Part shown: one piece after another, positions 2,866-27,195 of the stretch
Position numbering within the stretch: position 1 is the stretch's first letter
Layout of the letters: each line of letters starts with the position of its first letter
NCBI RefSeq assembly: GCF_024223415.1
Contig: NZ_CP100500.1
Length of the DNA: 64,000 bases
Origin: Escherichia coli
Lineage (GTDB): Bacteria; Pseudomonadota; Gammaproteobacteria; Enterobacterales; Enterobacteriaceae
Direction: 5' to 3' (one strand)
The notes under the pieces: model-generated
Seen by the model: the letters and a program-made list of their open reading frames with translations, nothing else
The model's database searches: none
What the model was told of the DNA's origin: nothing
Made by a program: the position numbers and the translations under genes

Positions 2866-3424
2866 ACATAAAGGAAAAGTATTATCGACCTCCTGTATAT
2901 TAAAATTGAGTTAGCATAGTGACGAACAGATTTGGCAGGGCATATGTAGCCTGCTCCCCTCCGGGGTTTAAAGCTCTTTTTGTAAGCAACGGGCGCATGT
3001 GCTGACCCACTCATTTGACATCATGACGGTTTATCTGTACGTCACCATAACGCATTTTATAAGAATGTTTTTTGTCCCATAACAGGTGTCCACTGGTTAA
3101 AAAGGTGGGCACCTGTCGTTACCAGTACTGGCTTAATTGCTACATACGGCTGTCGGTTTACGCTTACTTTCAACTTGTGGGTAAGGGGATGGAGTGCGAA
3201 TAAATGATCGAGCTTCGTGCGAATCACTGATCGAATACATCGGAATGCGCACTCTGAAGCAAACTTAAAACATCTCTGCACCATTCCATGCACGCATAAA
3301 AGTCATTCCGGCATTTCATTTTACATAACATAAACAGAACAATAATAATTACAACAACATTCACACCAGCATTACAGAACACACTCTGTCTGTTGTTATC
3401 ACCAGAAATATCAGGAGTATTTAA

Positions 3425-9016: not shown

Positions 9017-9585
9017 TCCGGTCAGATGCTCACCAGACCGCGCCCCCCATCAGTCTCCATATCCTCCCCCTTGCCCTGCCGGATGATAGCGCCACGCGAC
9101 ATCACCAGGTAGTGGTCCGCCGTAATGTTCCGGTGAAATCGTCCTGACACGTTTCCGGGCTCGTTATCAGCGGTTTTTGCGAATGATCGCCGCCCTGCGA
9201 TGGTTGATTTATTTTATTGCGCCCCGGCGTCTGCCTTGCCAGGTACCGGAGGCGGGCTCTGAAGTACTGAGTAGGGTGAGCGCGTCAGGCCACGAAGTAC
9301 TGACACGGGAGTTTGTGGCAGGCAGTGAAGTCCTGACCAGGGTAAGGGAGGGGCTGACGTGCATGCCCTGACTGTCAGCCAGGGCGCGTGGTGACTGACT
9401 TTCTCAATAACCCGCTGTCAGGCGCTCAACGCCCGACAGCAGGCCATGGCCCGGTGTGCAAAGACCTGACGGCAGGCCTTGTGTCACCCGGATAAGGTAA
9501 ATCCCTCAAGAGGCAGCAACTCAGCCAGTCGGTCCTCAGGCCACTCCGGCAGGCGCGTCAGTACGTCCGTCAGCCAGGCATGTTG

Positions 9586-11300
9586 CAAAATCGCATCGTG
9601 TTCGATCGCCGATTCGCATCGTACTCGATCGCTGATTCGCATTGTCCGATCATTGATTCGCATCCTGCAGTCACTCCTGGAATTAACTTTTCTGCATAGT
9701 CTCTACTGCTGAATTTTCTTCTCAGTAGAGGTCTTGATGGCTAAAAAGAAAATCTCCCGGAGTTCTATGGAAACCTGTTTAAAAATTCTCCAACTTAAGT
9801 TCGAGCAGCATCAGACAAACCGGACTATCGCACTTACACTGAACATCAGTCCCTCGACTGTTTCCGATGTATTGTCCCGCTTTAAGAACACGTCAATATC
9901 GTGGCCTTTGCCTGAATCGATGACAACTCAACGTCTTGAGGTGCTTATCTTTCCTGGCAAGCAAGCCCCGGAAATGACGCCGGCACTGCCTGACTGGCTC
10001 TACATTGATACCGAACTACGTCGTGTGGGAGTCACTCGTCAGCTCTTATGGATGGAATACAAACATCAGGCTGGTGAATATGCTCTGGGATACTCACAGT
10101 TCTGTCGTCGTTATCTGCACTGGAAAAAAAGCGTGCGTTACTCCATGCGGCAGGAACATCGTGCTGGTGAAAAACTCTTTATCGACTTCTGTGGTCCTAC
10201 AGTCCCTGTTGTTAATCCGGAAACCGGAGAAGAACGCAGAGTGGCCATCTTTGTAGCCGTGATGGGAGCATCTAACTATACCTATGTTGAAGCGTGCGAA
10301 GGTCAGGATCTGATGTCGTGGCTAAACGCCAACAGCCGATGTCTGACCTTCCTTGGTGGTGTACCAAAACTGCTGATCCCGGATAACCTTAAAAGTGCTG
10401 TCAAAAAAGTCGATCGCTACGAACCGGTCATCAATGAGAGTTACCAAGCATTCGCAGAGCACTACAATACAGTGATACTCCCAGCAAGACCAAGAAAACC
10501 AAAGGATAAAGCGAAAGCCGAAACGGCTGTACTTATCGTCGAACGATGGCTGCTTGCCCGCATTCGCAACGAGACCTTCTTTACACTCAGGAGCCTGAAC
10601 AGTCGTCTACGCGAGTTGTTGGTAGAGCTGAATAACCGTCCCATGAAAGGATACGGCAACCAGACGCGTGCAGAGCGTTTTGCCCTGCTGGATGCCCCTG
10701 CATTATCAGCCCTGCCAGTATCAGAGTATGAGTTCGCTGAATACAAAACGGTGAAAGTTGCACCTGATTACCATGTTGAATACGCCCACCACTGGTACTC
10801 AGTACCTCATGAACTGATCGGACAACGGTTATCCCTGAAAGCCACTCAGACAGTGATCCAACTCTGGCATCAGGGGCAATGCGTGGCACAACATCCGCGC
10901 AGCCTCCATGAGTACAAGCACACGACCAACCCTCTACACATGCCTGCAGCACATCAGGCACACAGCAGATGGACACCGGAAAGTCTTCAGGAAGCAGCCA
11001 GAAAGATAGATCCTTATACAGCAATGACAGTGGATAGCATGCTGAACAGTAAACGTCATCCTGAACAGGCTTACCGGACAGTCCTGGGGCTGCTGAGCCT
11101 GAAAAAACACTATGGTCGTGAGCGTCTGGAAAAAGCCTGTCATGTTGCCCGGGAGTGCAGAACGTCGGAAAGAAGGTTCATCGAAAACCTTCTGCGTAAT
11201 AACAGGGAAAACCTTTCCCTCCGGAAAAAGAGAGGCAGACGGAGGGAAACGTATCAAAAATCCAGTTAATACGCGTGATGACTGCCTGCATCACGTTTTC
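9586..11300 (+). mobile_element. IS21-family element remnant (istA only; boundaries approximate)
   Basis: Tandem ~21-bp repeats at 9586-9670 upstream of istA; element truncated before istB. Confidence 0.45.
9734..11269 (+). CDS. istA: IS21-family transposase IstA (cognate istB absent)
   Basis: N-terminal HTH plus catalytic core typical of IstA; no IstB-like ORF follows. Confidence 0.8.
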   Translation: MMAKKKISRSSMETCLKILQLKFEQHQTNRTIALTLNISPSTVSDVLSRFKNTSISWPLPESMTTQRLEVLIFPGKQAPEMTPALPDWLYIDTELRRVGVTRQLLWMEYKHQAGEYALGYSQFCRRYLHWKKSVRYSMRQEHRAGEKLFIDFCGPTVPVVNPETGEERRVAIFVAVMGASNYTYVEACEGQDLMSWLNANSRCLTFLGGVPKLLIPDNLKSAVKKVDRYEPVINESYQAFAEHYNTVILPARPRKPKDKAKAETAVLIVERWLLARIRNETFFTLRSLNSRLRELLVELNNRPMKGYGNQTRAERFALLDAPALSALPVSEYEFAEYKTVKVAPDYHVEYAHHWYSVPHELIGQRLSLKATQTVIQLWHQGQCVAQHPRSLHEYKHTTNPLHMPAAHQAHSRWTPESLQEAARKIDPYTAMTVDSMLNSKRHPEQAYRTVLGLLSLKKHYGRERLEKACHVARECRTSERRFIENLLRNNRENLSLRKKRGRRRETYQKSS

Positions 11301-11395
11301 ACCCGTCATGATTTTCTTTTTCACGGCCTCTCCGTCATCTTCAGTTCACACCTTTGTATAAAAAACAGGGCGTGATACACATCACGCCCTGCGCT

Positions 11396-12391
11396 TCAGT
11401 GGCTGATTTTTTTCAGCTGTTCTTCACTCAGCCCCGTAATTTTCATGATTGTCTGGAAACCCATCCCTTCAGCCAGCATATTACGCGCGGTTTCCAGTTT
11501 GCCTTCCAGTTGTCCTTCGAGTCGACCTTCGGCACGGCCTTCCATTCTGCCTTCCATTCTGCCTTCCAGCTTACCACGCTCCATACCCTGCGCCATGCCC
11601 AGCGCAATGCCTTCCTCGCGTCCGCTCTGCTTCAGTTGTTCAGCCAGTGTCATTATGTTGCCCTCGTGCTGTGGCAGCCGCTCCGCCAGCGTCTGCAAAA
11701 ACCTTACCGTCACATGTTCACTGCCGTTCAGCAGATAGTGGAACAGAACCTGCGCCAGCTCTTCATTCAGCGAAGTCTGTATCAGCTGAACCAGCCTGTC
11801 CATCTGCAGCATGATGTCGCGGCTGCGGCTGTGTTTCATCAGCAGCGTCAGTGCCCCCATACGACGGTGCTGCATTATTTCATCGTCATCCAGTACCGTC
11901 ACGTCCACCAGGTGGAACGGTCTGGTGTAGATTTTAGCAGCAAGTTCCGGATTTCTGAAACACTCCAGCCAGTTCATGCTGTACGGGTACGGACTCCGCT
12001 CACCGTGGTAGAATAACAGCGGGATCACCAGCGGCAGCTCATGGTGCTGTTCAAAGTGACGCTGCATCGCCGCCACCGCATATCTGAGCATCCTGAACGC
12101 CATAAACGCGTTTTCCGTGCTCTGGTGTTCCGCGAGGCAATAAATATACCCCTCCTCACCGCTGACGGTCTTCATGCTGAACAGCGCATCGCACGCATAC
12201 TGTTTCAGATCCTGGTCCACAAAGGTACAGGGCTCCAGCCGCAGCGTTGACAGATCACACAGCTGCCGGTATTCCGCCGGAAGATGCAGTTCAACAAAAT
12301 CACGGGCCACCTCTGCGGAGGCCATAAACGCCCTGAAGGCAGCATCATGCGGCGTGGGGGTATTTTTCTCTTTCCTGCTGCTCACCGTCAT
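11396..12391 (-). CDS. Rpn-family recombination-promoting nuclease (YhgA-like putative transposase)
   Basis: Rpn/YhgA-like N-terminus and the characteristic C-terminal EGR(M/L)EG repeat tail; hairpin 11368-11393 just downstream. Confidence 0.75.
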   Translation of the reverse strand: MTVSSRKEKNTPTPHDAAFRAFMASAEVARDFVELHLPAEYRQLCDLSTLRLEPCTFVDQDLKQYACDALFSMKTVSGEEGYIYCLAEHQSTENAFMAFRMLRYAVAAMQRHFEQHHELPLVIPLLFYHGERSPYPYSMNWLECFRNPELAAKIYTRPFHLVDVTVLDDDEIMQHRRMGALTLLMKHSRSRDIMLQMDRLVQLIQTSLNEELAQVLFHYLLNGSEHVTVRFLQTLAERLPQHEGNIMTLAEQLKQSGREEGIALGMAQGMERGKLEGRMEGRMEGRAEGRLEGQLEGKLETARNMLAEGMGFQTIMKITGLSEEQLKKISH

Positions 12392-12506
12392 CCACTCAAC
12401 TGTCCGGTATCACTCTTTTTTGCAATCATACCAGCCGTAACCATTTCAGTCACCGGTGCAGCCTCCGCCTGAAACCTGTACCGGAGAGAATAACATCGCG
12501 AATGGC

Positions 12507-13079
12507 TTAGCGGATGATGCCGGCCATCACAGGCCAGGATAACGAAAGGCACGCGTTTCTGAATGCCCTGAGTGGCTCAGCGCCTTCAGGTGTGGCTGCA
12601 CGCACCACCCTGTAACAGCATACCACCGTACACTGCCCTTCTGGTGTGAGTGTGGTGCCGGCCTGTTGCAGTAACGCCACCAGGAGCGAATCAGCTGTTA
12701 GGCCGGATCCCGGTGGGCAAATGAGATCCTGGCTGATCAGCAACAGACAACGTATCCCGGTGCTGTCTGTCGTTTCCCGCAGCCAGCGTAACACCACCGG
12801 CAGTAACGGATATCCGGCATGGCTTCGCTGATTCAGCTGTCTGTAAAATGCCCGGTAAAACGCATGAATCTGCCCCCCGTCACGATTTCCTCCTGTTGAA
12901 TGAAGTGTGAACTGAACGGCCAGCAGACGCGGCCAGTGATCCACCGCCTGCTGAATAAAACGCCGGATTTCCACCGGCTCTGAAAGTACGGTTTCGGTTA
13001 TCTGCACGATTTGCTCTCTTTGAATGTTTCTGAACCGGTGTCGGTGCACAGGGAAACGCATACCCACACCACCACGCAT
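12507..13079 (-). CDS. YagK/YfjJ (inovirus Gp2-like) family paralogue with degenerate HUH motif
   Basis: Aligns by eye with ORF 14155-14748, but the HYHLLLL position reads IRCLLLI. Confidence 0.45.
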   Translation of the reverse strand: MRGGVGMRFPVHRHRFRNIQREQIVQITETVLSEPVEIRRFIQQAVDHWPRLLAVQFTLHSTGGNRDGGQIHAFYRAFYRQLNQRSHAGYPLLPVVLRWLRETTDSTGIRCLLLISQDLICPPGSGLTADSLLVALLQQAGTTLTPEGQCTVVCCYRVVRAATPEGAEPLRAFRNACLSLSWPVMAGIIR

Positions 13080-13125
13080 ACCCGGTCACAGCGTCACCGC
13101 CGTAAACTGCGACCGGGAACGCGCA

Positions 13126-13548
13126 TTACAGCAACGAATTGTCCGTCCCGGTATCTTCCATCAGGGGCTCCCGGCGTTCCCTGCTGTACAGCCCGCTTCC
13201 ACACCCCGGGCAGACCTTTTCTCCTTCATAGCTTTCATCACACATCACACAAAACCACCTTCTTACCTTCACCGCATAATCAGGCACCAGCATGCCCTGC
13301 AGATACACACGACGGGATTCTTTCTCTGCCGGGTCAAGCCAGGTACATCGCAGGAGAACTTTCTCAGAGACCGTCATCTGGTCATGTTCAAACCACGGTG
13401 GTTGTCCGTCCGTGCCCCGCTTAAGCGTTAACGGGCAACCACAGGACACACAGCACAAAACGTCCTGGCGGTTGTGCTCCGCAGCTTCTTTCGCGGTGAC
13501 AAAATGGCCCTTGCTGTCATTCGCCATATAGCAGTTCAGAATTCGCAT
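13126..13548 (-). CDS. Cys-rich zinc-ribbon protein, prophage-associated
   Basis: CxxC pairs and a PWFEH motif; start moved to internal ATG to remove overlap with the neighbour. Confidence 0.5.
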   Translation of the reverse strand: MRILNCYMANDSKGHFVTAKEAAEHNRQDVLCCVSCGCPLTLKRGTDGQPPWFEHDQMTVSEKVLLRCTWLDPAEKESRRVYLQGMLVPDYAVKVRRWFCVMCDESYEGEKVCPGCGSGLYSRERREPLMEDTGTDNSLL

Positions 13549-13562
13549 ATCCCCCCCTGAGC

Positions 13563-13949
13563 TTAAGCTGTCCGGGAAATACTGAAGCGCCCGGTCCGGC
13601 AGTGTGTGCAGTACTGCTCCCCATAATAATCGTGGTGACATTGTCTGCAGTGCCGGCTGGCTTTACGCACCACGGGTAAGGCATCCGGTACAAACTGCCG
13701 TAAGCGTTTAATCAGTTGCACCTCCCTGCGCTCAGGCTGTACGTAAGGACACTGCTGACCGTGCTCCGTCAGCCCTTCGTCAGTGTGTTCAAACCAGGGG
13801 CGTTCAGTGTTGTATTGCGGGTGGTATCTGAGCGCACTGCCGCAAAGGTGGCAGGTGTAGCGGTCGTAAGGTGCAGTCTGTGCGGTACGGGCACCGGTCA
13901 GACGTCCGTTGCCATCAAACGCGAGAAAAGATTTTGCGTACATCGTCAT
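13563..13949 (-). CDS. Cys-rich zinc-ribbon protein, paralogue of 13126-13548
   Basis: Shares CxxC…PWFEH with the neighbour; second CxxC cluster at the C-terminus. Confidence 0.5.
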   Translation of the reverse strand: MTMYAKSFLAFDGNGRLTGARTAQTAPYDRYTCHLCGSALRYHPQYNTERPWFEHTDEGLTEHGQQCPYVQPERREVQLIKRLRQFVPDALPVVRKASRHCRQCHHDYYGEQYCTHCRTGRFSISRTA

Positions 13950-14154
13950 ACTCCGGGGCCGCCAGACGACACGCAGGCGTCAGCCGTCCCTTTACGGGCA
14001 GCGTGGACAGAGTGTGAATGGCGGTACAGTTAAGGGTGGAAAATGGGTGGGCTGTTGTTACAGCACTGTGGGTGTCACATCATGGTGTACCAACGTAAAA
14101 AATAATCAGCAGGATGTCGCCGGACATCAGCCCGTCCTGCTGGTTTTGCCGGGC

Positions 14155-14748
14155 TCAGCCCCGACTGCAGCCGAAATTACGTTCACCGGTGCCACAGGCT
14201 TTGGTATGCTCCTTCGCCAGATAGTCAGCCCGTTCCAGTAGCTGCTGAAAGCCGGCGTCATCATCACGCGTCAGCCACAGTGCGGGATGTTCCGGAAAGG
14301 TCGCCAGCGTGGCATGGTATCCGGCATCCACACCCAGGGCACTGCACCACGCCTGTTTAATCATCCCGGCCAGTGACCCCGGAACGCGGTAATCGCCGGC
14401 ACGGCACCAGGTATCCCGGTTGACCAGCAACAGCAGGTGATAATGTTTTTTACCTTTACGCTCCCCGAACTCCCGGGCCCAGGCGTAATGCAGGGTTGTG
14501 GGATGTACGCGTTTACCTTCACGGCGCCTGCGTTTCTGGTAAGCGTAAATTCGGGCTTTCAGGGCATTGACGAAGCGGGATATCACCGCAGCATCGGTCT
14601 CTGCGGGGTGCTCCGGCAGACGCAGATCCACCTGGAGCGCTGTCAGGCGGGGATGCACCGCCAGTGCCTGCTGCACCGTCTCACGGATACGCTTCTGCCA
14701 GAAGCTGTTGTACTTGTGTATCATGGTTGAATCTCCTCCGTGACTCAC
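14155..14748 (-). CDS. YagK/YfjJ-family protein (inovirus Gp2-like, HUH-motif replication-initiator-like)
   Basis: HYHLLLL HUH-type motif; resembles CP4-type prophage YagK/YfjJ proteins. Confidence 0.65.
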   Translation of the reverse strand: MSHGGDSTMIHKYNSFWQKRIRETVQQALAVHPRLTALQVDLRLPEHPAETDAAVISRFVNALKARIYAYQKRRRREGKRVHPTTLHYAWAREFGERKGKKHYHLLLLVNRDTWCRAGDYRVPGSLAGMIKQAWCSALGVDAGYHATLATFPEHPALWLTRDDDAGFQQLLERADYLAKEHTKACGTGERNFGCSRG

Positions 14749-15167
14749 AGACGTTACTTAAGGAAGAAGATGAGCAACAGGCTACACGTACGATAAAAGA
14801 CATTTGGGTCATGAATACACGATCTGGATGGACGACATAAAGGTGATGATCTGCTCAAACCAACCAGCGTTTATGATCGATGCGACAGACAGAAGGAATG
14901 AACTACTACAATAAATAAAATCTGTCGCTGTGTGGCAAGGAAGATTTTCTTCAGGAGTGCTGGCTTATTGGGATTTTTAACACAATTTAGAGTGAGTTCA
15001 ATCAGCCACAAATCTGGATTCCTATGTCCGGATTTTTACCACAATCCCCTTATTGATTTTTATTAATCATTCACAATCTGTGATCTAGCTCGATTGCGAT
15101 TTGTATTTGACTTAATATAATCACCATGATTGTATTAAATCAAATTATAACAACAGGCGTAAAAACC

Positions 15168-16121
15168 ATGAACATTAAAAAATCAATAGAACGAGTACCC
15201 GGCGGTATGATGGTTGTACCACTGGTGATTGGCGCCATTATCAATACCTTTTCACCACAAGTGCTGGAGATCGGCGGGTTCACCACCGCGTTGTTCAAAA
15301 ACGGCGCTGCTCCTCTGATTGGTGCCTTCCTGCTCTGTATGGGAGCAGGGATCAGCGTGAAAGCCGCACCTCGGGCGTTGTTTCAGGGGGGGGCAATAAC
15401 CCTGACCAAACTGCTTGTCGCCATTGCGATTGGCCTAGGTGTTGAGCATCTGTTCGGTCAGGAAGGTATCTTCGGATTGAGCGGCGTGGCAATCATTGCG
15501 GCAATGAGTAACTCAAACGGCGGACTTTACGCGGCGCTAGTGGGAGAGTTTGGCAACGAACGCGATGTCGGCGCTATTTCAATTCTATCTCTGAATGATG
15601 GACCGTTCTTTACAATGATCGCGCTGGGAGCTGCTGGTATGGCGAACATACCAATCATAGCGCTGGTCGCAGTGCTGATTCCGCTGGTGATAGGGATGCT
15701 CCTCGGTAACCTTGATCCCAACATGCGTGACTTCCTGACCAAAGGTGGACCACTATTGATCCCGTTCTTCGCGTTTGCGCTGGGTGCGGGGATCAACCTT
15801 GAAATGCTTCTGCAGGGTGGGCTGGCTGGGATTCTGCTTGGCGTACTGACCACCTTTATCGGCGGTTTCTTTAACATTCGCGCCGACCGTCTGGCTGGGG
15901 GAACCGGTATTGCCGGCGCGGCGGCTTCCAGCACAGCCGGAAATGCGGTAGCGACGCCGCTGGCGATTGCTCAGGCAGACCCTTCGCTGGCTGAAGTGGT
16001 TACCTCTGCCGCACCGCTGATTGCCGCATCGGTGATCACAACCGCAATTCTGACGCCAGTCCTAACCTCTCGGGTCGCCAAAAATCGGGCGCGTCAGATC
16101 TCTGAGGAGAAAAAAGTATGA
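15168..16121 (+). CDS. KdgT-family permease (2-keto-3-deoxygluconate transporter-like)
   Basis: MNIKKSIERVPGGMMVVPL matches the KdgT N-terminus; polytopic membrane protein. Confidence 0.75.
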   Translation: MNIKKSIERVPGGMMVVPLVIGAIINTFSPQVLEIGGFTTALFKNGAAPLIGAFLLCMGAGISVKAAPRALFQGGAITLTKLLVAIAIGLGVEHLFGQEGIFGLSGVAIIAAMSNSNGGLYAALVGEFGNERDVGAISILSLNDGPFFTMIALGAAGMANIPIIALVAVLIPLVIGMLLGNLDPNMRDFLTKGGPLLIPFFAFALGAGINLEMLLQGGLAGILLGVLTTFIGGFFNIRADRLAGGTGIAGAAASSTAGNAVATPLAIAQADPSLAEVVTSAAPLIAASVITTAILTPVLTSRVAKNRARQISEEKKV

Positions 16122-17389
16122 AGATGATCGTTATCGCCGACGACTTTACGGGTTCTAACGATACTGGCGTGCAGTTGGCGAAGAAAGGAGCTCGCACGGA
16201 AGTTTTGCTAACGCCGGAGCAAAAGCCTTCGCGTCGCACGGATGTACTGGTGCTCAACACTGAAAGTCGTGCGGTGCCGGCCGCACAGGCAGCGAAAGCG
16301 GTAACGCATGCTCTGGCTCCCTGGTGCAAAGGAGAGATGCTCCCGCTGGTATACAAGAAAATCGACTCCACATTTCGCGGCAACGTCGGCGCGGAAGTGA
16401 CGGCAGCGATGCGAGCCGCTAAACGGACTCTGGCAGTGATCGCTGCGGCGATCCCAGCTGCAGGACGCACAACCCGTAACGGATTATGCCTGGTCAACGG
16501 TACGCCTCTACTGGAAACCGAGTTTGCCAGCGATCCGAAAACGCCGGTTTTCTCCTCGCGCATTGCGGAACTGATCGCGCTACAAAGCGATATCCCGGTA
16601 CATGACGTGTCGCTTGATGACGTGCGACGCGGACAGCTCAGCGCCCTTCTTAAAGCTTTTGCAGCCCAGGGGGAATGCATGGTGGTAGTCGATGCGGTGG
16701 AAGATCACGACCTGTCTCTGATTACCCAGGCTATTTGTGAACAGGCTACATTTCCTCTACTGGTCGGTGCGGCAGGACTGGCGAATGCGCTACCGGTCAG
16801 AATGTTCATGCAGGAGAAGAAGGCTCTGCCAGTGCTAGTAGTTGCAGGATCGATGAGCGAAGCCACCCGGCGGCAGGTTGAAAAAGCGCTCACCCAGGCA
16901 CACGCCAACGTGGTGGACATTGATGTCTCACGACTGATTTCCTCGAAGGCCGAACAGGAAATAGCCTCTGTGGTGGAACAGGCCAGCGTGTTGCTCAGTC
17001 ACCAGAAACACACGATTCTTCGCACCAGCCGTAGTGCGGATGACCGACTGATGATCGATGCTCTGTGTACTGAAGCAGGCGTAGGCCGCCAACAGCTTGG
17101 CGAGATGCTCAGCCAATGTCTAGGGATCATTACACTGCGCATTATCGAACAGGCGCGTATTGGCGGCCTGTTCCTGACCGGAGGAGATATTGCCACTGCT
17201 GTTGCCAGTGCGCTTGGTGCTGAAGGCTATCGCATCCAGAACGAGGTCGCCCCATGCATTCCCTGCGGGATGTTTGTGAACAGCGAAATCGACGATCTTC
17301 CGGTGATCACGAAAGCTGGCGGATTCGGTTCAGACAGCACCCTTTGTGATGCACTTTATTTTATTGAGGAGATGTACAGTGGTAACTAA
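16118..17389 (+). CDS. Four-carbon acid sugar kinase, DUF1537 family (OtnK/DtnK-like)
   Basis: MKMIVIADDFTGSNDTG N-terminus typical of the family; overlaps the KdgT stop. Confidence 0.75.
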   Translation: MKMIVIADDFTGSNDTGVQLAKKGARTEVLLTPEQKPSRRTDVLVLNTESRAVPAAQAAKAVTHALAPWCKGEMLPLVYKKIDSTFRGNVGAEVTAAMRAAKRTLAVIAAAIPAAGRTTRNGLCLVNGTPLLETEFASDPKTPVFSSRIAELIALQSDIPVHDVSLDDVRRGQLSALLKAFAAQGECMVVVDAVEDHDLSLITQAICEQATFPLLVGAAGLANALPVRMFMQEKKALPVLVVAGSMSEATRRQVEKALTQAHANVVDIDVSRLISSKAEQEIASVVEQASVLLSHQKHTILRTSRSADDRLMIDALCTEAGVGRQQLGEMLSQCLGIITLRIIEQARIGGLFLTGGDIATAVASALGAEGYRIQNEVAPCIPCGMFVNSEIDDLPVITKAGGFGSDSTLCDALYFIEEMYSGN

Positions 17390-18362
17390 AACAATAGCGA
17401 TTACGATGGGCGATCCGGCAGGTATCGGTCCAGAAATAATTGTCAAGGCACTTTGTGAAAATGAACTTAGCGGCGCACCGCTGGTAGTGGTGGGATGCCT
17501 ACAGACCCTACAACGTTTGCAAACCAAAGGACTGGCAGAAGGAGTGACTTTTCGCGCAATTGACAATGTCACGCAGGCGCGATTTTCACAGGGCGTGATT
17601 CACGTAATCGATGAGCCGCTGGCACAGCCCCAAGCGCTGGAGCCAGGTAAAGTGCAGGCCGAGGCGGGAGATCTGGCCTACCGTTGCGTAAAACGTGCGA
17701 CGGAGTTGGCACTGAAAGGTGATGTACACGCCATCGCCACTGCGCCGCTGAATAAAGAAGCACTACATCAGGCGGGACATTATTATCCGGGACATACCGA
17801 ACTGCTGGCGACGTTGACCGGAAGCCGTGACTATGCGATGGTGCTTTACACCGACAAGCTGAAGGTGATTCACGTTTCGACCCATATTGCGTTACGCAAG
17901 TTTCTCGACACTCTCAACAGGCAACGCGTGGAGACTGTTATAGGCATCGCGGATCACTTCCTTAAGCGTATTGGCTTAGCCCAACCGCGCATCGCCGTAG
18001 CCGGGATCAATCCCCATGCAGGCGAAAACGGTCTGTTTGGCGATGAAGAAATTCGCATTGTATCGCCAGCCATTGAAAACATGAGGGCGAAAGGAACAGA
18101 CGTTTTCGGACCATGTCCACCGGATACCGTGTTTTTGCAGGCATACGAGGGTCATTATGACATGGTGGTGGCGATGTACCACGATCAGGGACATATTCCG
18201 CTCAAACTGCTTGGATTCTATGATGGCGTGAATATCACCGCCGGTCTGCCGTTTATTCGTACCTCTGCTGATCACGGGACTGCGTTTGATATTGCCTGGA
18301 CGGGCAAAGCAAAATCTGAGAGCATGGTCATATCGATTAAACTGGCAATGCAACTGGCATAA
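17379..18362 (+). CDS. PdxA-family NAD-dependent dehydrogenase (PdxA2-like 4-phospho-hydroxy-acid dehydrogenase)
   Basis: IAITMGDPAGIGPE plus MYHDQGH/ADHGTAFD motifs; GTG start overlapping the kinase stop. Confidence 0.75.
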   Translation: MVTKTIAITMGDPAGIGPEIIVKALCENELSGAPLVVVGCLQTLQRLQTKGLAEGVTFRAIDNVTQARFSQGVIHVIDEPLAQPQALEPGKVQAEAGDLAYRCVKRATELALKGDVHAIATAPLNKEALHQAGHYYPGHTELLATLTGSRDYAMVLYTDKLKVIHVSTHIALRKFLDTLNRQRVETVIGIADHFLKRIGLAQPRIAVAGINPHAGENGLFGDEEIRIVSPAIENMRAKGTDVFGPCPPDTVFLQAYEGHYDMVVAMYHDQGHIPLKLLGFYDGVNITAGLPFIRTSADHGTAFDIAWTGKAKSESMVISIKLAMQLA

Positions 18363-18371
18363 TTTCCTGTT

Positions 18372-19142
18372 ATGAAAGGACAACACCGTCTGGATAAAAT
18401 AGTGGCGTATTTGAAAAATCATACGCTGGCGACCGTGGAACAACTTGTAGATGTGGTAGAAGCATCGCCCGCGACGATCCGACGTGATCTGATCAAACTG
18501 AATAAACAGGGTGTGATCAGCCGCAGCCACGGAGGTGTTGCCCTGCGGCGTTTTGAACCCGCGCAACCCACAACCAATGAAAAGCAATTACGATCGCCTG
18601 CGGAAAAGCGGGCGATCGCGCGTTTTGCAGCCTCAATAGTACAGGCCGGCGACGCAGTGGTTTTGGACGCCGGCACCACCATGCTGGAGTTGGCTAAATG
18701 CCTGACTCATTTGCCACTCAGGGTGATCACGGTCGATCTGCATATCGCCCTGTTTTTGTCCGAATTTCCCCAGATTGAAGTCACCATTGTGGGTGGTCGT
18801 ATTGATGAAAGCAGTCAGTCCTGTATCGGCGACTTTGGTCGCAAAATGTTACGTAGCGTCTACCCTGATATCGCATTCATGAGCTGTAACACCTGGAGTA
18901 TGGAAAAAGGTGTCACAACTCCGACGGAGGACAAAGCAGGACTCAAGCAGGAGATTATCGCTAACGCCCAACGTAAGGTTCTACTGGCCGACAGCAGCAA
19001 ATATGGCGCGCATTCGCTGTTCAACGTAACGCCGCTGAGCAGTTTTACCGATGTTGTGACCGATGTGCATCTGCCACGCCCTGTCCAGGCAGAGCTGGAA
19101 GCCCACTCCATTGCCCTTACGCTAGTCCAGCCTGGATTTTAA
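18372..19142 (+). CDS. DeoR-family transcriptional regulator
   Basis: N-terminal HTH ([22 protein letters not shown]) with DeoR-type C-terminal domain. Confidence 0.8.
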
Positions 19143-19429
19143 AGGGACCGTTCACAGTTATCAGGACGGACGGCATGTTGCGCCAACAGTCTTACCTGTG
19201 AACTGTATAGTGAACGTCTTTATGCTTATGGCAGTAAATCCACCAGTTGCAAACATCCCCCGCTGACCGGGGGAAAGTATTCATGTACCTGTTGTTGATT
19301 TACTGATGTCCATATCGGACATTCAGCATGATACGCGTTGTCATCCGGAACACGACTCTCTGTCGTATAAATATACCCCCGGATGAACGCTGTTTCGGAT
19401 GTGCGTACCTGGGGGCCTCAGGTGACAGC

Positions 19430-20464
19430 TCAGACGGTGGTCATATCAATAACGATTCTGCCGTTGATTTTTCCTGCGCGCATGCGGCCGAATACAGAGT
19501 TGATATTTTCCAGTGGCTCCGTGGTGACCTCTGCATGAACCTTGTGCTGACCGGTAAAGAAGAGAGCTTCCTGCAAATCCTTACGGGTCCCTACAATAGA
19601 ACCCCTCACAGTTATACCATCAAGCACCATATCGAATATCGACAAATCAAATTTCCCCGGCGGCAGACCGTTCAGTACCATCGTTCCGCCACGACGCATC
19701 ATACCTGTGGCCTGAGAAAATGCGGCTGGTGACACTGCCGTGACCAGTACACCATGTGCACCACCAGTTTCTGCATGAATGCGCTGTACCGGATTTTCAC
19801 GCACGGCGTTCACCACAACAGAGGCTCCAAGTCTGCAGGCCAGCTCCAGTTTACTGTCATCCACATCAACAGCCGCAACATTCATCCCCATCGCGGCGGC
19901 ATACTGAACGGCCAGATGTCCCAGTCCTCCGACACCGGAAATCACCACCCATTCCCCCGGGCGGGCTTCCGTCATTTTCAGTCCTTTGTAAACAGTCACG
20001 CCGGCGCAAAGCACGGGGGCTATATGGTGAAAATCAACATTATCCGGAAGAAGTCCGACATAATTCGCATCCGCAAGACAGTATTCCGCAAACGTGCCAT
20101 TCACCGAATAACCAGCATTTTGTTGGGAATGACACAGGGTTTCCCAGCCCCCCAGGCAATGCTCACAGTAGCCGCATGCAGAATACAGCCAGGGAACCCC
20201 TACCCGATCGCCTTCCCTGATATGTTTTACGCCGGCACCCACGGCCACCACGTGACCTACCCCTTCATGTCCCGGAATAAACGGCGGACGTGGTTTGACT
20301 GGCCAGTCACCATCTGCAGCATGAAGATCGGTATGGCATACCCCCGTGGCTGCTATTCTGACCAGAATTTTTCCGGGTTCAATGGCCGGCACGGTAACTT
20401 CATCAATAACCAGCGGTTTTCCAAATTCTGTGACAATAGCGGCTTTCATGGTTTTGAGTTGCAT
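19430..20464 (-). CDS. Zinc-dependent alcohol dehydrogenase (AdhP-like)
   Basis: GVCHTDLH and GHEGVG zinc-binding motifs, GLGGLG NAD-binding motif. Confidence 0.85.
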
Positions 20465-20494
20465 TTTTGATTCCTCTGTTAGCGAAAGACAAAA

Positions 20495-22015
20495 TCAGAA
20501 CAGACCAGCCGGTGATGTGTCATAACTGACCAGAATATTTTTAACCTGCTGATAGTGGCTGAGAGCCAGCTTATGTGTTTCCCTGCCAATACCAGAATTT
20601 TTATACCCTCCGAATGCGGCATGTGCCGGGTAATAATGGTAACAGTTTGTCCATATACGCCCGGCCTGGATCCCTTTTCCCATTCTCCATGCCCGGTTTA
20701 TATCTGTCGTCCACACACCCGCGCCAAGTCCGTATTCCGTATCGTTGGCGATACTGAGCGCCTCTTCTTCTGTCCTGAACGTGGTTATGCCAATGACAGG
20801 TCCGAAGATTTCCTCCCTGAAACATCGCATCTGATTATGGCCTTTGATCAGGGTCGGCTGAATGTAGAAGCCATTCTGTAAATGTCCCTCGTGGATGACA
20901 GGTGCACCACCGGTGAGTATTTCTCCGCCCTCATCCCTTGCTATGCGGATCCAGGAAAGGATCCTGTCATACTGTTCCCGGGAAGCCTGTGCACCTATCA
21001 TTGTGTCTGTATCAAACGGATCTCCACGGCGGATATTTTCGATTTTATGCAGAACCCGCTCCACAAAAGCCTGAAAGATCGTTTCCTGAACCAGGATACG
21101 TGAGGGACAGGTACAGACCTCCCCCTGATTAAAGAAGCCAAGTACAGCACCTTCAACCGCCTTTTCAAGGTAGCTGTCATCTCCGTTCATCACATCGTCA
21201 AAGAAAATATTGGGGGATTTACCGCCCAGTTCGACTGTACTGGGGATAATATTTTCAGCTGCGCAGGAGAGAATATGCCGCCCGACGGGCGTGGAGCCTG
21301 TGAATGCAATTTTATCGATACGACGGCTGCGGGCCAGAGCTTCACCAGCTTCCTGCCCGAAACCATGAACAACGTTAAGCACACCCGGCGGTAAAAGATC
21401 ACCGATTAATTCCAGCAGTACGCAAATACCCAGAGGGGTCTGTTCTGCGGGCTTCAGTACCACACAGTTTCCTGCCGCAAGTGCCGGTGCCAGTTTCCAG
21501 GCCGCCATCAGCAAAGGAAAATTCCATGGAATAATCTGACCGACCACTCCCACAGGTTCATAGATGTGCCATGCCATCATATCCCTGCCCACCTCTGCTG
21601 CACTGCCTTCCTGCGCCCGGAGACAGCCCGCAAAATAACGGAAGTGGTCAACTGCCAGTGGAATATCGGCCGCGAGTGTTTCGCGTACCGGCTTGCCGTT
21701 ATCCCAGGTTTCTGTCAGTGCCAGGATTTCTGTGTTCGCTTCAATACGATCGGCAATGGCAAGCAGTATATTCGCCCGCTCCGTGACCGGTGTTGCCCCC
21801 CATCGGGCTCTGGCCTCATGTGCCGCAGTGAGCGCGCTTTCAATATCCATCTCACCCGAACGTGGGAATTCAGCAATATTTTCTCCGGTAACAGGAGTGG
21901 TGCTGGTGAACCATCGCCCGCCGACAGGATCAACAAACTGACCGTTGATAAAGTTACCGTAGCGTTTTTTGAATGACACTTTTGAGCCGGGTAATCCCGG
22001 ATGTATGTATTTCAT
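20495..22015 (-). CDS. NAD-dependent aldehyde dehydrogenase (AldB-like)
   Basis: Collinear by eye with E. coli AldB; ELGGKSP and catalytic Cys context GEVCTCPSR. Confidence 0.9.
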   Translation of the reverse strand: MKYIHPGLPGSKVSFKKRYGNFINGQFVDPVGGRWFTSTTPVTGENIAEFPRSGEMDIESALTAAHEARARWGATPVTERANILLAIADRIEANTEILALTETWDNGKPVRETLAADIPLAVDHFRYFAGCLRAQEGSAAEVGRDMMAWHIYEPVGVVGQIIPWNFPLLMAAWKLAPALAAGNCVVLKPAEQTPLGICVLLELIGDLLPPGVLNVVHGFGQEAGEALARSRRIDKIAFTGSTPVGRHILSCAAENIIPSTVELGGKSPNIFFDDVMNGDDSYLEKAVEGAVLGFFNQGEVCTCPSRILVQETIFQAFVERVLHKIENIRRGDPFDTDTMIGAQASREQYDRILSWIRIARDEGGEILTGGAPVIHEGHLQNGFYIQPTLIKGHNQMRCFREEIFGPVIGITTFRTEEEALSIANDTEYGLGAGVWTTDINRAWRMGKGIQAGRIWTNCYHYYPAHAAFGGYKNSGIGRETHKLALSHYQQVKNILVSYDTSPAGLF

Positions 22016-22081
22016 GACATTCTCCCTGAGCGAAATTCAGTGTACGTTCATGCAGGAACAAAACTGTTGCAGATAACCTTA

Positions 22082-22098
22082 AGCAACACCCATGCCAC
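22082..22098 (-). promoter_or_regulatory. Candidate sigma-54 (-24/-12) promoter for the aldehyde/alcohol dehydrogenase operon
   Basis: Minus strand reads TGGCAT-N5-TTGCT with GG…GC spacing as in the TGGCAC-N5-TTGCW consensus, about 70 bp upstream of the ALDH start. Confidence 0.5.
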
Positions 22099-22256
22099 CA
22101 AGTTGTTACACACAGTTAACAACAACAAAAACAGCCTGTTAGCCCAAAAAACAGACAACCGAAAAAGAATCACCACAGGAAAATGTGAAGCAAATAAAAC
22201 ATTTTCGATACACAAATGATACAATCATGCAACACAACTGTTGCAAGGATTGAATT

Positions 22257-24017
22257 ATGTTACGTAAGAGATCTGCAACTGAGTATCAGAAAGAAAAAGC
22301 CACGCTTCCGGTACTCCTGAGTGCATCATGGCAACGATGTACCGGCTATCATCTCGAAAGAGACAGTGCGCCCTCAGTATGTGTTGAGCATGACCAGTTA
22401 CGGGATCTCCGGTCGCACAACGGCTGGTCAGATATCCTTAAACAACAGTTCCCTGAATCAGGCTCTGATTTTTTCAGTAAATCACTGGTACTGGTTATTG
22501 CTGATGCATCAGGCGTGATCCTTGACACCTGCGGTAACAGGAAATTTCTGAATAAAGCCGAAGGTTTTTTCCTTTCCCCCGGTCATATCTGGACCGAACA
22601 ACACTACGGCACAAATGCCATAGGTACAGCGCTGGCTGTACAGCAGGCATGTGAAGTGAGGGGGAGTGAACACTGGCTCAACAGAAATTCAGGACTCTGT
22701 TGTTCGGCATACCCGCTATTTTCACCTGAAGGTTATCTTGCCGGTATCCTGGATTTATCGTCACCGGCAGATTTACCATTCCGTGATGCACCGGTGATTA
22801 TCAGGCGGTTTGTTCAGCAAACCGAATATCTCTGGACAACAAAACGACTCAATGCAGAGAGATATCTGTTGCATCTCCGCCGGGAAAACAACGCAGACAT
22901 CAGTGACAGTAGTGAATTTTTACTGGTCATTGAAGGTGATGTGATTGTTGGTGCCAACAGGCTCGCTGTGAATGAATTTGGCCTTCTTCCACCTTATGAT
23001 TCCGTCACTCTGGATACTCTCTTTACCGGGGGTAACAGACAGTCTGATTTTCTGGAATCGTGCAGCGGACAACGTTATCTGCAGCGACGCACCCGCCCCC
23101 ACAGAGCTGCCGTGAATCTGTCACCCCGCCTCCGTTTTCCATCGCGGCGTGAAGCGGACAACGAAAAAAAGGAAAAAGCACAGCAGTTAATCAACCACGG
23201 AATATCGGTCTGTATTACAGGAGAAACCGGAACGGGGAAAGAATATCTGGCGCGGGAGCTTCACCGTAACAGTTGCCGGAAAAACGGCAACTTTGTTGCA
23301 ATTAACTGTGCTGCCCTGCCGGAACACCTGACAGAATCAGAGCTTTTCGGATACGCTCCGGGAGCATTTACCGGCGCGAATTCCAGAGGTTATCCCGGGA
23401 AAATCAGGGAAGCCAGTGGCGGGATCCTGTATCTTGATGAAATCGGCGATATGCCGGCAACACTTCAGACACGGTTATTACGTGTACTGCAGGACAAAAA
23501 AGTGATTCCTCTGGGTTCAAACACGCCTGTGGACGTTGACTTCGTACTGATATCAGCCACGCACCGTGATCTGGATAAGATGTGTGCAGAAGGGACTTTT
23601 CGGGATGATCTGTTATACCGAATACGGGAATTTCACCTGCATCTTCAGCCACTTCGGGAAAGAAGCGACCTGGGTAAACTGATAGTTAAACTCTGGGAAG
23701 AATCTGAACAGGAGATGAAAAAAACCGTCATGCTGGGCAGTGAAATTATTGAAGATTTAAAACGACATTCATGGCCGGGGAATGTACGTCAGTTGCTGAA
23801 TGTGCTCAGAGTTCTGATGGCGCTGGCACGACCTGGAGGAAGAATCACTCCAGGTGATCTCAGCGTAGTGTCTGAAGATATTTGTCATATCCATAATACC
23901 GTAAAGATAGTGACCGAAAGAAAAATAGTGGATGAGGCCGGAGGAAACATCAGCAGAGCGGCAAAAATGCTGGGTATTTCCCGAAGCACATTATACAGAC
24001 GACTGAAAAGTCTGTAA
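22257..24017 (+). CDS. Sigma-54-dependent transcriptional activator (AcoR-like)
   Basis: AAA+ Walker A GETGTGKE, GAFTGA signature, C-terminal HTH; divergent from the ALDH operon. Confidence 0.85.
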   Translation: MLRKRSATEYQKEKATLPVLLSASWQRCTGYHLERDSAPSVCVEHDQLRDLRSHNGWSDILKQQFPESGSDFFSKSLVLVIADASGVILDTCGNRKFLNKAEGFFLSPGHIWTEQHYGTNAIGTALAVQQACEVRGSEHWLNRNSGLCCSAYPLFSPEGYLAGILDLSSPADLPFRDAPVIIRRFVQQTEYLWTTKRLNAERYLLHLRRENNADISDSSEFLLVIEGDVIVGANRLAVNEFGLLPPYDSVTLDTLFTGGNRQSDFLESCSGQRYLQRRTRPHRAAVNLSPRLRFPSRREADNEKKEKAQQLINHGISVCITGETGTGKEYLARELHRNSCRKNGNFVAINCAALPEHLTESELFGYAPGAFTGANSRGYPGKIREASGGILYLDEIGDMPATLQTRLLRVLQDKKVIPLGSNTPVDVDFVLISATHRDLDKMCAEGTFRDDLLYRIREFHLHLQPLRERSDLGKLIVKLWEESEQEMKKTVMLGSEIIEDLKRHSWPGNVRQLLNVLRVLMALARPGGRITPGDLSVVSEDICHIHNTVKIVTERKIVDEAGGNISRAAKMLGISRSTLYRRLKSL

Positions 24018-24337
24018 GAACAACGTGCTGCCGGATACGTTATTTGCGGGAAATTCCTGTTCTGTAAAATATATCTCAGGTTGTTAAAACCCTGTCATTC
24101 TTCCATGTGAACAGTATGAGAAACATCACACGGGTATATTCACGGCCGGCACAACCACAGACATAAATGATATCCTGCGCATCATTTCCTGATGCTCTGA
24201 TACTGAGTTAACCACTTATTTACATCTGACGATAAATTGTTTATTCATTCTTCAGGGTAAATAAAGCCATAAGGAGTGTGATATTCACGATACGCTGAAA
24301 ATCGGTGAACTGAAAAATGGCAGTTACAGGGGGAAAT

Positions 24338-25822
24338 ATGAGTGATTTAATTAATTTTATTAATGGCATAATATGGAGCCCGGCACTGGTCTGGCTTTGT
24401 CTTGGAACAGGCCTCTGGTTTTCTGTCAGGGGACGCTTCCTGCAGCTCCGGCATATTAAAGAAATGCGCCGTCTGATATTCCGGAGTAAACAGAATGATG
24501 CGGGCGTTTCCTCTTTTCAGGCACTCACGATGACACTGGCCGGACGGGTCGGAACCGGTAATATTGCCGGTGTTGCCACGGCTATCACCTTTGGTGGTCC
24601 CGGTGCATTATTCTGGATGTGGGTGGTGGCATTTCTCGGCGCAAGCTCAGCCTTTGTCGAATCCACACTGGGGCAAATTTATAAGGAAAAAATTAACGGA
24701 GAATACCGGGGCGGACCCGCTTTTTACATAGAAAAAGGGCTTGGGTTACGATGGTACGCATGGCTGTTTGCTGTGGTGACGGTGCTTTCCTGTGGGCTGT
24801 TATTACCCGGTGTCCAGGCGAATTCGATAGGAAGCAGCCTGAACCTTGCATTCGGGATTAGCCCCAATGTGACGGCAGCATTTATCGCCCTCCTTCTTGG
24901 ATTCATCATCTTTGGTGGTGTAAAACGGATTGCTGTATTTACCAGTACTGTCGTGCCTTTCATGGCTCTCGGCTATATCATTGTCGCGTGTGTCATTGTT
25001 GCACTTCATATTGAAAAACTTCCCGGCGTGCTCCTCCTTGTCTGGCGCTCTGCTTTTGGACTGGATGCAGGTTTTGGTGCCATTGTCGGGCTTGCCATTT
25101 CATGGGGGGTCAAACGTGGTGTCTATTCCAATGAAGCCGCTCAGGGAACCGGACCTCACGCCTCTTCCGCTGCGGCAGTGACACATCCGGTTAAACAGGG
25201 ACTGGTGCAGGCCTTTTCTGTATATATCGACACGCTTTTTGTCTGTTCAGCTACGGGATTTATGCTTCTTGTTACCGGTCTGTATAATGTTCAGGGCCCC
25301 GGTGATGTTGCCTTATATACCGGTATCGCCGGTGTGGCAGCCGGGCCCGGCTATGTGCAGACAGCCATGGAAAGTATGATGCCGGGGTTTGGTAATTATT
25401 TTGTCGCAATCGCACTGTTCTTTTTCGCATTCACCACGATTGTTGCTTACTATTATATCGCAGAAACTAACATTGCCTGGATTTGCCGTAAAACAGCACG
25501 CCCCTGGCTTATGATTGTACTGAAGATTATGCTGATGGTTTCTGCGGTATACGGTACGGTCAAAACCGCAGATATGGCATGGGGACTGGGTGATATAGGG
25601 GTTGGTATGATGGCATGGCTTAATATCATCGCTATATTGCTTATGGGAGGGACTGCGTTTAATTGCCTCAGGGACTACGAAAAACAGATGTCACAGAATG
25701 CTGACCCGGTATTTGATCCCGAACGCCTCAGTCTGCAAAATGCTGATTACTGGACAGAACACCGTGATGAAGTTAAAAAATTGAGTGAGCCCGGGCCCAC
25801 ATTCCGGACAACGTCGTCGTAA
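24338..25822 (+). CDS. Alanine/glycine:cation symporter (AGCS family)
   Basis: Collinear with YaaJ-type carriers from MSDLINFINGIIW. Confidence 0.85.
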   Translation: MSDLINFINGIIWSPALVWLCLGTGLWFSVRGRFLQLRHIKEMRRLIFRSKQNDAGVSSFQALTMTLAGRVGTGNIAGVATAITFGGPGALFWMWVVAFLGASSAFVESTLGQIYKEKINGEYRGGPAFYIEKGLGLRWYAWLFAVVTVLSCGLLLPGVQANSIGSSLNLAFGISPNVTAAFIALLLGFIIFGGVKRIAVFTSTVVPFMALGYIIVACVIVALHIEKLPGVLLLVWRSAFGLDAGFGAIVGLAISWGVKRGVYSNEAAQGTGPHASSAAAVTHPVKQGLVQAFSVYIDTLFVCSATGFMLLVTGLYNVQGPGDVALYTGIAGVAAGPGYVQTAMESMMPGFGNYFVAIALFFFAFTTIVAYYYIAETNIAWICRKTARPWLMIVLKIMLMVSAVYGTVKTADMAWGLGDIGVGMMAWLNIIAILLMGGTAFNCLRDYEKQMSQNADPVFDPERLSLQNADYWTEHRDEVKKLSEPGPTFRTTSS

Positions 25823-26084
25823 ATCAGAAACATTTTCCCGTCAGATGCCCGACGTATTCTGACGGTTAAGGGGCTGCAGGAGACGATATGCTCATTCCTG
25901 CAGCCCTGATTATTTCCCCTCCCTCCACAGGAAAAACATGCTCCCCTGTATTTTATACCAGATATTTTTATCTTTATCGTCCGGCCACCTTATGGTATAA
26001 AATCCGCAAACGGCAAGGCTGAACAGTACCTCGTTCCGGGTGGTTTGAGACTTTTCTGCCTTAGCCGTTTTCTGATCTTCAACC

Positions 26085-26303
26085 GTGGTATCAAAAATGA
26101 AAACAAAACAGGACTGGTTATTTCAGTTACGGCGATGCTCCAGTATTGAAACCCTGGAAAAAGTTATTGAGAAAAATCATTACTGCCTGACCCCATCAGA
26201 AATGGAAACATTCAATTCAGCGGCAGATCACCGGCTTGCAGAACTTAAAATGAATAAGCTTTATGACAAAATTCCGCCGTCAGTCTGGAAATATGTTTAT
26301 TAA
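26085..26303 (+). CDS. Hha/YmoA-family nucleoid-associated modulator
   Basis: 72 aa, near-collinear with Hha (…LRRC…[11 protein letters not shown]…[20 protein letters not shown]…). Confidence 0.8.
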
Positions 26304-26585
26304 GTCTGCGCCACATACGGGACAAATTCCCGGGGATACGTGACATATGCCGGTAACACAATCACAAATATCGCGGTTGTATCAGCAATTGTTGATACAA
26401 CGAAAAATTTGCACCTGACAGCGGGCAGAAATGAACAGGAAGAATCAAAGCACAACAACTTATTACAAAACTCCGCACTGCCATATCCTGCTTTCAGGAC
26501 CATGCTGATTTTCATGACTGTTCCGGCAGGAACAGTCATTACGCAAAAAACTCCCCGGTAAAACCATTATCTGCCCTCCTGAAAA

Positions 26586-26774
26586 TCACTTCTTCGCAAG
26601 AGTACAACTGAGTTCAGGTATTTTGAGCTGAACACGCACTTTTTTCTGCGCCGGAAAAAATTTACGGTATTCCTCTTCCTTCAGCACTTCACCGGTATTG
26701 CGCCGCCAGATAAATGGTATGCCATCACTTTTCTGAATAACTGCATTAATCTGATAACAGCTCATTTTTCTCAC
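26586..26774 (-). CDS. Hypothetical small protein (62 aa)
   Basis: ORF only; overlaps the 3' end of the GrlA-like gene. Confidence 0.25.
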   Translation of the reverse strand: MRKMSCYQINAVIQKSDGIPFIWRRNTGEVLKEEEYRKFFPAQKKVRVQLKIPELSCTLAKK

Positions 26775-27195
26775 TTTGTTCCGGCGGCATTTCTCCTGCC
26801 CGACGCGAACACATCCAGCGACGCAGAGCCGTCAGCGTGTCTTCTTCCTGAACGCTGCAGGATTTTGGTGTGGCTGGCTGTGGAGCGGGTTGCCGGTAAC
26901 GTATCCCTGAGGCTGGCACAGACGTCACGCCCGGAGATACTGACAGGATCCGGATGGCACGGATTTTCTGACGGTGCGCATCAATCAGGTTAAGTACTTC
27001 GCTGTCAATGAACTCCCGCGCATCGCGGGTAATGAAAAGCAGAATATCGTGTGCCTCTGCCTGGCTGATGCCGAATGCACGCGCAACACAGATTTCGGTC
27101 AGCAATACTTTTTCTCTCAATCCCCACATGGCAACAGCGACATGCAGCGGAGCATGCTCAAAATCACAGACAATTCCCGGTAACATTTTTCTCAT
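26746..27195 (-). CDS. CaiF/GrlA-family transcriptional regulator
   Basis: PLHVAVAMWGLREKVLLTEICVARAFGIS fits the CaiF/GrlA winged-helix pattern. Confidence 0.5.
   Translation of the reverse strand: MRKMLPGIVCDFEHAPLHVAVAMWGLREKVLLTEICVARAFGISQAEAHDILLFITRDAREFIDSEVLNLIDAHRQKIRAIRILSVSPGVTSVPASGIRYRQPAPQPATPKSCSVQEEDTLTALRRWMCSRRAGEMPPEQSEKNELLSD

Follow-up and report, generated by a model that had tools for sequence, protein, structure and literature searches.

A probable 3′-truncated remnant of an IS21-family element beside an rpn gene in an Escherichia coli accessory island

An open reading frame (ORF) annotated as 'IS21 family transposase' and seemingly of full length lies close to an rpn gene in the 64-kb stretch of E. 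coli chromosomal DNA analysed here (the window). How much of the element is left, whether it can still move and how it came to adjoin rpn are the questions raised by this locus. Several complete E. coli genomes match stretches of the window at 99.9-100% identity, and the locus sits inside an E. coli accessory genomic island (Table 1). The original prediction had placed an Rpn nuclease next to the element, and the neighbouring gene could indeed be recognized, by its PF04754 domain, as one that would encode an Rpn/YhgA-like protein; RefSeq annotates its homologues as Rpn family. No tRNA gene was found by ARAGORN in the window, so that the attachment site of the island is not obvious, and an Rfam scan gave no match in or near the IS21-family remnant.

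Table 1. Features of the locus and of the surrounding island (window coordinates)
Feature	Position	Strand	Basis or remark
Island, left part			In order: extra lldD, papB-like gene, lldP, MFS transporter, then a stack of IS remnants
Solo IS21-like right end	~3170-3251	+	Terminus ...CATCGGAATGCGCA at 3251; two or three GTGCGAAT..GATCGA units
IS66-family right-end remnant	9122-9583	-	IR GTAATGTTCCGG... at 9122; 3′ non-coding region; tnpC end
tnpC, last ~33 codons	9484-9583	-	PF13817 (IS66 C-terminal element), 4.3e-08
Left terminal inverted repeat (L-TIR)	9584-9675	+	Terminus TGCAAAATCGCATCG, then four direct repeats
istA′ ORF	9737-11269	+	510 aa from ATG at 9737; TTG at 9734; GAGG Shine-Dalgarno at 9728-9731
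Truncation/fusion junction between istA 3′ end and ibrA-like fragment	11202-11216	.	Two homologies overlapping
ibrA/ybdN-like PAPS-reductase (PP-loop) gene, 5′ fragment	11202-11309	-	32 codons, MTGENVMQAVITRINWIFDTFPSVCLSFSGGK; translation and homology
Upstream DNA of the ibrA-like fragment	11310-11368	-	Abuts rpn terminator
rpn intrinsic terminator	11365-11392	-	12-bp stem and T-run
rpn	11396-12391	-	PF04754 (PD-(D/E)XK YhgA-like), E=6.5e-74, residues 13-209; start of the right accessory block
Island, right part			rpn, then CP4/P4-like genes (UCP030791, DUF7828/Zn-ribbon, YagK/YfjJ)
Genes beside rpn	12507-14748	-	UCP030791-like ORF, DUF7828 pair, YagK/YfjJ ORF
Two tandem overlapping DUF7828/Zn_ribbon_11 ORFs	13126-13641 and 13563-13949	-	
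YagK/YfjJ (inovirus Gp2-like) ORF	14155-14748	-	
Island, farther right			TOTE conflict-system gene, P4-type integrase
IS21-like left-end fragment (L1+L2)	27267-27306	+	40 bp; 88% identical to 9584-9621
IS21-like right-end fragment	27530-27591	+	Terminus abuts start of homology to TOTE locus
TOTE conflict-system protein	27604-29955	-	Archaeo-eukaryotic primase and helicase domains (PF22548 5.8e-99, ResIII, Helicase_C)
Gp2/REP-like ORF	30116-30679		Adjoins TOTE gene
DUF3987 protein	31629-33176		Adjoins TOTE gene
P4-type integrase gene	37123-38325		
Two CRISPR-DR4 (type I-F-like) direct repeats	38604-38692	-	Rfam RF01317, 50 bits each; just past the integrase gene

The left end and the interrupted IS66-family remnant

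The ~23-bp tandem units that occupy 9584-9670 are the own left TIR of the IS21-family element, which starts at 9584 with TGCAAAAT. From this position the TIR reads TGCAAAATCGCATCGTGT / TCGATCGCCGATTCGCATCGTAC / TCGATCGCTGATTCGCATTGTCC / GATCATTGATTCGCATCC, with a start-to-start spacing of 23, 23 and 21 bp between its TCGATC..GATTCGCAT units. Tandem Repeats Finder returned a period-23 array (9591-9664, 3.3 copies), a repeat search gave three 22-nt units (at 9599, 9622 and 9643) and the ATTCGCAT core was present in four copies (9589, 9612, 9635 and 9656). The 20-mer given in the original prediction had 3 matches in the window with no more than three mismatches, compared with 0.01 expected. Three tandem ~21-bp units had been described there as lying upstream of the element (9586-9670); the repeats are real, but they form its left end rather than upstream extras, and their period is ~23 bp.

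In IS21, the TIRs consist of multiple direct repeats (L1/L2 and R1/R2) that are 23 bp apart and bound by the HTH domains of IstA; two boxes are conserved in every repeat and are recognized by the two HTH domains, and integration depends on the terminal CA and on no fewer than two repeats (PMC10122671). By likeness to this layout, the 23-bp tandem repeats of the window copy are presumably the IstA-binding repeats L1-L4 of its own left end. Direct repeats ~23 bp apart within a 5′-TG...CA-3′ end, which characterize the family, were present on the left and the right end was absent. ISSso4 (L002), a relative on a Salmonella plasmid (L003) and a metagenomic relative (L022) begin likewise with a TGCAAAAT-type terminus, after which TCGATC..GATT(C/G)GCAT units recur every ~23 bp. 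Inverted copies of the repeats are present at the right end of the first two, and the contig of the third breaks off within its right-end repeats. Since the equivalent termini of ISSso4 are flanked by a 7-bp target duplication (CTCAGGC), the placement of the left terminus at 9584 could be validated.

To the left of this terminus, where the flank reads ...GGCATGT, lies the remnant of an IS66-family element. It is assigned to that family by the signature at the C-terminus of the DDE transposase TnpC and by a terminal IR of the GTAA type. It has lost tnpA, tnpB and most of tnpC and retains the final 462 bp, of which 9130-9583 is ~76% identical to complete IS66-family elements on plasmids. With the ISEc23-like relatives and the complete, plasmid-borne element L009, it shares the IR (which in L009 is common to both ends), the GAAGTACTGA motifs and the C-terminus of tnpC; it differs from them in its shortness and in its ~76% identity to the L009 type, and it is the target of the IS21 insertion and not part of the IS21-like element. 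In the related copies of strains AR_0085 (L004), GF60 (L019) and CM2 (L021) and in L009, tnpC runs unbroken past the equivalent of 9583 (...CAGGCATGT/GGCTCCAG...). Thus, it appears that the IS21-like element was inserted into an IS66-family tnpC.

The GAAGTACTGA motifs, located at 9261 and 9294 (exact) and 9327 (one mismatch) with a spacing of exactly 33 bp, fall in the 3′ non-coding region of the IS66-family remnant, and two or three of them are kept at the same positions in L009. They belong to this remnant and are unconnected with the IS21-like element. The original prediction of three such copies upstream, at 9270-9340, was right as to the copies, slightly off in the range and mistaken in not separating them as part of another IS. 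It is possible that the motifs (9261-9336) are candidate subterminal transposase-binding sites of this IS66 subgroup.

The 3′ border of istA′ and the missing right part of the element

The istA′ product matched PF22483 (7.5e-20) and the HTH_28/23/38 families, and its match to PF00665 (rve; 6.3e-07, 30.0 bits) was slightly below the 32.6 cutoff. Residues 1 to ~494 are IstA, with the HTH, DDE core and β-barrel regions in place; the DDE triad (D150, D216 and E262) aligns with D124/D187/E233 of IS5376 IstA, and the amino acid identity to IstA of the ISSso4 group is 72-77%. Judged by sequence, it would be a transposase of the IS21 type, which has HTH domains, a DDE/rve core and a Mu-type C-terminal β-barrel. 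These domains and identities, together with the layout of the left TIR, bear out the assignment to the IS21 family that had originally been made.

On the other hand, the view that IstA is full length could not be maintained, as its homology stops at about residue 494 (nt 11213-11221) and the conserved tail is replaced by 17 unrelated codons. Homology in tblastn spans 9767-11221, at the DNA level the match to ISSso4 and the Salmonella element extends no farther than 11213-11215, and protein homology to ISSso4 and five other relatives breaks off after ...RRFIENLLRNNREN (after ...NLLRNNREN in the alignment with ISSso4), that is, at about codon 494. The relatives run 23-33 residues further, to a conserved EHENLRGPxYYH, whereas the window reads SLRKKRGRRRETYQKSS and then a stop. 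The last 17 codons (~11216-11266) run antisense through the ibrA-like fragment. The ORF is chimeric, leaving the IS and continuing in antisense ibrA′ as far as a chance stop, and the length of 511 codons which it shares with the istA of ISSso4 is a coincidence. What carries the annotation of an IS21-family transposase is really such a read-through of a 3′-truncated IS, which keeps ~97% of istA and has lost ~25-30 native C-terminal residues (the last 75-100 nt).

At the junction, IS21 homology extends to 11213-11215 and ibrA homology begins at 11202, with a 1-nt indel at ~11216. The overlap of ~14 bp (11202-11215) may represent microhomology and would fit a microhomology-mediated illegitimate join; the right breakpoint is placed to ±7 nt only, being set by relatives of 72-77% identity. 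Because no intact copy of this lineage was found, the native istA 3′ end, istB and right TIR have likewise been deduced from these relatives. The ibrA-like fragment is identical at 23 of 31 residues (74%) to the N-terminus of proteins annotated as PAPS reductase, the match reaching precisely as far as SFSGGK and breaking off there, within the SGGKDS PP-loop motif. At the nucleotide level, ~75% identity was seen to the 5′ end of genes with that annotation in 1323 E. coli genomes. These genes adjoin IbrB-like genes, and we take PAPS-reductase genes in such a position to be of the ibrA/ybdN type.

Two other explanations of this interval were tried and rejected. The region 11216-11368 as divergent native IS sequence or as the start of istB is at odds with the PAPS-reductase-like N-terminus encoded on its opposite strand. 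The boundary at 11369, where homology to other E. coli rpn loci starts, was considered as a recurrent Rpn-associated breakpoint; since these other loci without exception belong to a single relE-rpn type, one event is enough to account for it.

As had been claimed, no IstB-like ATPase gene follows istA′. Tblastn with the ISSso4 and Salmonella IstB proteins revealed no istB anywhere in the window, and alternative gene calling, by which an istB immediately downstream might have come to light, found none and left the earlier reading standing. The only tblastn match was weak (23130-23351, 29% identity) and corresponds to the AAA+ domain of a sigma-54 activator. Directly downstream of istA, where members of the IS21 family carry the gene for the AAA+ helper ATPase (PF01695), the window has the antisense ibrA-like fragment and then rpn. 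The absence of istB comes from truncation, and the copy is a remnant rather than an intact member of the family. Among the IS21-like end fragments of the window, none pairs with the 9584 end as its right TIR. Integration of IS21 needs IstB and two TIRs (PMC11208146; PMC10122671). Having one end only and no IstB AAA+ helper, the copy is therefore immobile, and the original prediction of a truncated, immobile element was correct: a left end and most of istA are present, without istB or a right end.

One of the closest known relatives is ISSso4, found on Shigella sonnei pINV and on plasmids of E. coli and E. albertii. The two share 72% identity in IstA and ~72% nucleotide identity over 9603-11215, the left terminus and repeat units described above, and a start context of M-x-KK-x-K-S-R-S-x-METC. 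However, ISSso4 is complete (2638 bp, with istB 17 nt after istA, and with a right TIR and a TSD of 7 bp) and the window copy stops at about codon 494; the latter has four left repeats compared with about six in ISSso4, and the two are too divergent to be the same IS. With IS21 and IS5376, the structurally characterized IstA-IstB system, the remnant shares the domain order (HTH, DDE, β-barrel), an aligned DDE triad and TIR direct repeats 23 bp apart with terminal TG/CA (PMC10122671; PMC11208146). It differs from them in that the similarity over the DDE core and β-barrel is distant (E ~3e-13), the window protein is ~110 aa longer and IstB and a second end are lacking. We put at about 0.93 the probability that 9584-~11215 is the left ~62% of an IS21-family element of the ISSso4 subgroup, truncated at its 3′ end and surviving as an immobile remnant.

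Recurrence of the junction and decay of istA′

Hundreds of E. coli assemblies share the istA′/rpn junction. In the assembly index, 553 blocks list the exact IstA′ protein, 48 of which have only contigs below 2 kb. The gene adjoins rpn without istB in each of the eight loci shown. Other ISs have struck the remnant repeatedly. An ISEc23 copy flanked by an 8-bp duplication has entered at 9735-9742 in six of the eight loci (followed in TUM1886 by a deletion) and cuts the istA′ ORF off from its Shine-Dalgarno and promoter region. IS1 lies within the TIR at ~9651-9660 in one of the eight, and an IS3-family element was found at ~11190-11194 in three loci of a separate look-up. Such repeated insertions are a pattern of neutral decay and not of retained function.

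This pattern bears on the possibility that IstA′ has been domesticated or is still functional. The reading frame has stayed open, with an intact DDE triad and with its own four-repeat binding site alongside, and the protein is identical or nearly so in many E. coli assemblies; judged from these features, some residual DNA binding or activity in trans is conceivable. IstA′ could have been kept by selection as a DNA-binding regulator or recombination factor, or could act with IstB of resident IS21-family elements (ISSso4, IS100) in trans on the IS21-like ends at 3251, 9584, 27267 and 27591. If true, this cooperation would drive island rearrangements beside a recombination-promoting Rpn nuclease. 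We regard either role, retained by selection or in trans, as highly unlikely. The identity of the protein fits recent common descent, the draft genome L011 having the same arrangement and 99.97% identity across 6.3 kb spanning the istA′ locus, non-coding DNA included. Moreover, the promoter region has been split from the ORF in most of the loci listed, IS1 or an IS3-family element interrupts the remnant elsewhere, and the window contains no IstB.

The intact parent of the remnant was not found: among 5.8 billion protein sequences, no IstA has an amino acid identity between 77% and 100%, the nearest other IstA being 77% identical. Of the 52 members of the 90% cluster of IstA′, 40 were read and 15 are listed; all 15 are fragments, have the same chimeric C-terminus or represent a shorter, IS3-interrupted version. 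One member (P0122) was labelled 'transposase for ISEc12' by its submitter. ISEc12 is an active E. coli IS of the IS21 family with a 5-bp TSD (PMC10711316). Complete E. coli genomes, including ST131 genomes that are reported in the literature to carry ISEc12, contain no DNA more than ~76% identical to the window istA besides the truncated locus, and the label seems to have been taken from a best hit. Either the parent IS has died out or it is unsampled.

Scattered IS21-like ends and the proposed history

Three further IS21-like ends are present in the window (Table 1). The solo right end at 3170-3251 is 82% identical to the right TIR of ISSso4, lies just upstream of the island lldD with no adjoining istB, and is 100% conserved in the 10-11 complete E. 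coli genomes that have this island. The left- and right-end fragments at 27.3-27.6 kb are 225 bp apart with unrelated DNA between them, and homology to a TOTE locus found in 685 E. coli genomes begins right after 27591. Both right-end fragments were considered as the missing right TIR and rejected, because their flanks give no 5-8-bp duplication with the flank of 9584 (nothing matching GGCATGT was found at 3252 or 27592) and neither of them continues the IS66 tnpC; elements of the IS21 family have a short target-site duplication (4-8 bp) on either side. A miniature (MITE-like) IS21 derivative at 27267-27591 was also unsupported: there is no TSD, and what matches the interior (27308-27555) is unrelated DNA that carries an IS4-family or hypothetical annotation. 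It should be noted that the two right-end fragments have in common the internal point from which their homology starts (AACYTGTGGGYAAGGGGATG), which may be the istB stop region. The scattered ends show that this IS lineage was repeatedly active in the history of the island, and that every trace of it in the window is now dead.

A large composite mobile unit might also be imagined between the left TIR at 9584 and the fragment ending at 27591, in which case a segment of 18 kb might be movable once provided with IstA and IstB. Both ends are correctly oriented for this (TG... at 9584 and ...CA at 27591), and homology to the common TOTE locus starts directly beyond the second one. However, no target-site duplication is shared (GGCATGT / CATGT on the left, GCAAAGC on the right), the R2 repeat of 27530-27591 is degenerate in both conserved boxes and istB is lacking. 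The left TIR sits in the IS66 tnpC, whose continuation is not found past 27591, and the 9584-27591 block flanked by a 5-8-bp duplication was absent from all contexts examined, which makes a unit of this kind extremely improbable. As IS copies often break or mis-join assemblies, the istA′/rpn junction might be a false one from a chimeric contig, the chance of which is practically negligible given the identical junction in independent assemblies, including Mb-scale chromosomes (L012, L013, L016 and L018) and L011.

For the truncated remnant, we infer an order of events and a mechanism of deletion as follows. First, an IS21-family element would have inserted into the tnpC of an IS66-family element already resident in the island. 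Later, an illegitimate deletion or recombination, possibly at short microhomology, would have removed istB and the right TIR entirely, together with the last 75-100 nt of istA. The same event would have fused the stump to a 167-bp ibrA/ybdN-like piece, comprising the 5′ end of the gene and its upstream region and abutting the rpn terminator. The outcome would be a fixed, vertically inherited scar that has since been struck again by other ISs.

The proposal that the element marks a junction between accessory blocks was also supported. In other E. coli, the junction between the left block (lldD-papB-like-lldP-MFS-IS66′) and the right block (rpn-UCP030791-...) has another form, for example in AR_0085, where IS66′-relE′-rpn, with a longer IS66′ and a relE′, replaces IS21′ and ibrA′ between them. 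Judging from these arrangements, the interval between IS66′ and rpn appears to be a rearrangement-prone seam. The significance of the locus beyond annotation is small; it may serve as a lineage marker, being a nested IS scar (IS66′ cut by IS21′ and then by ISEc23, IS1 or an IS3-family element) at a variable lld/rpn island junction.

The IS66′-relE′-rpn arrangement of AR_0085 recurs in other strains at a sitA-sitB′ locus, as a paralogous module that AR_0085, GF60 and CM2 share, and strain 23CRST013 has a relE of intact length beside rpn. That AR_0085 joins this module to the lld/MFS flank suggests homologous recombination between two IS66′ copies, and AR_0085 may itself be recombinant rather than ancestral. 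Within the right block, other strains have AlpA and a 191-aa ORF where the window has the DUF7828 pair.
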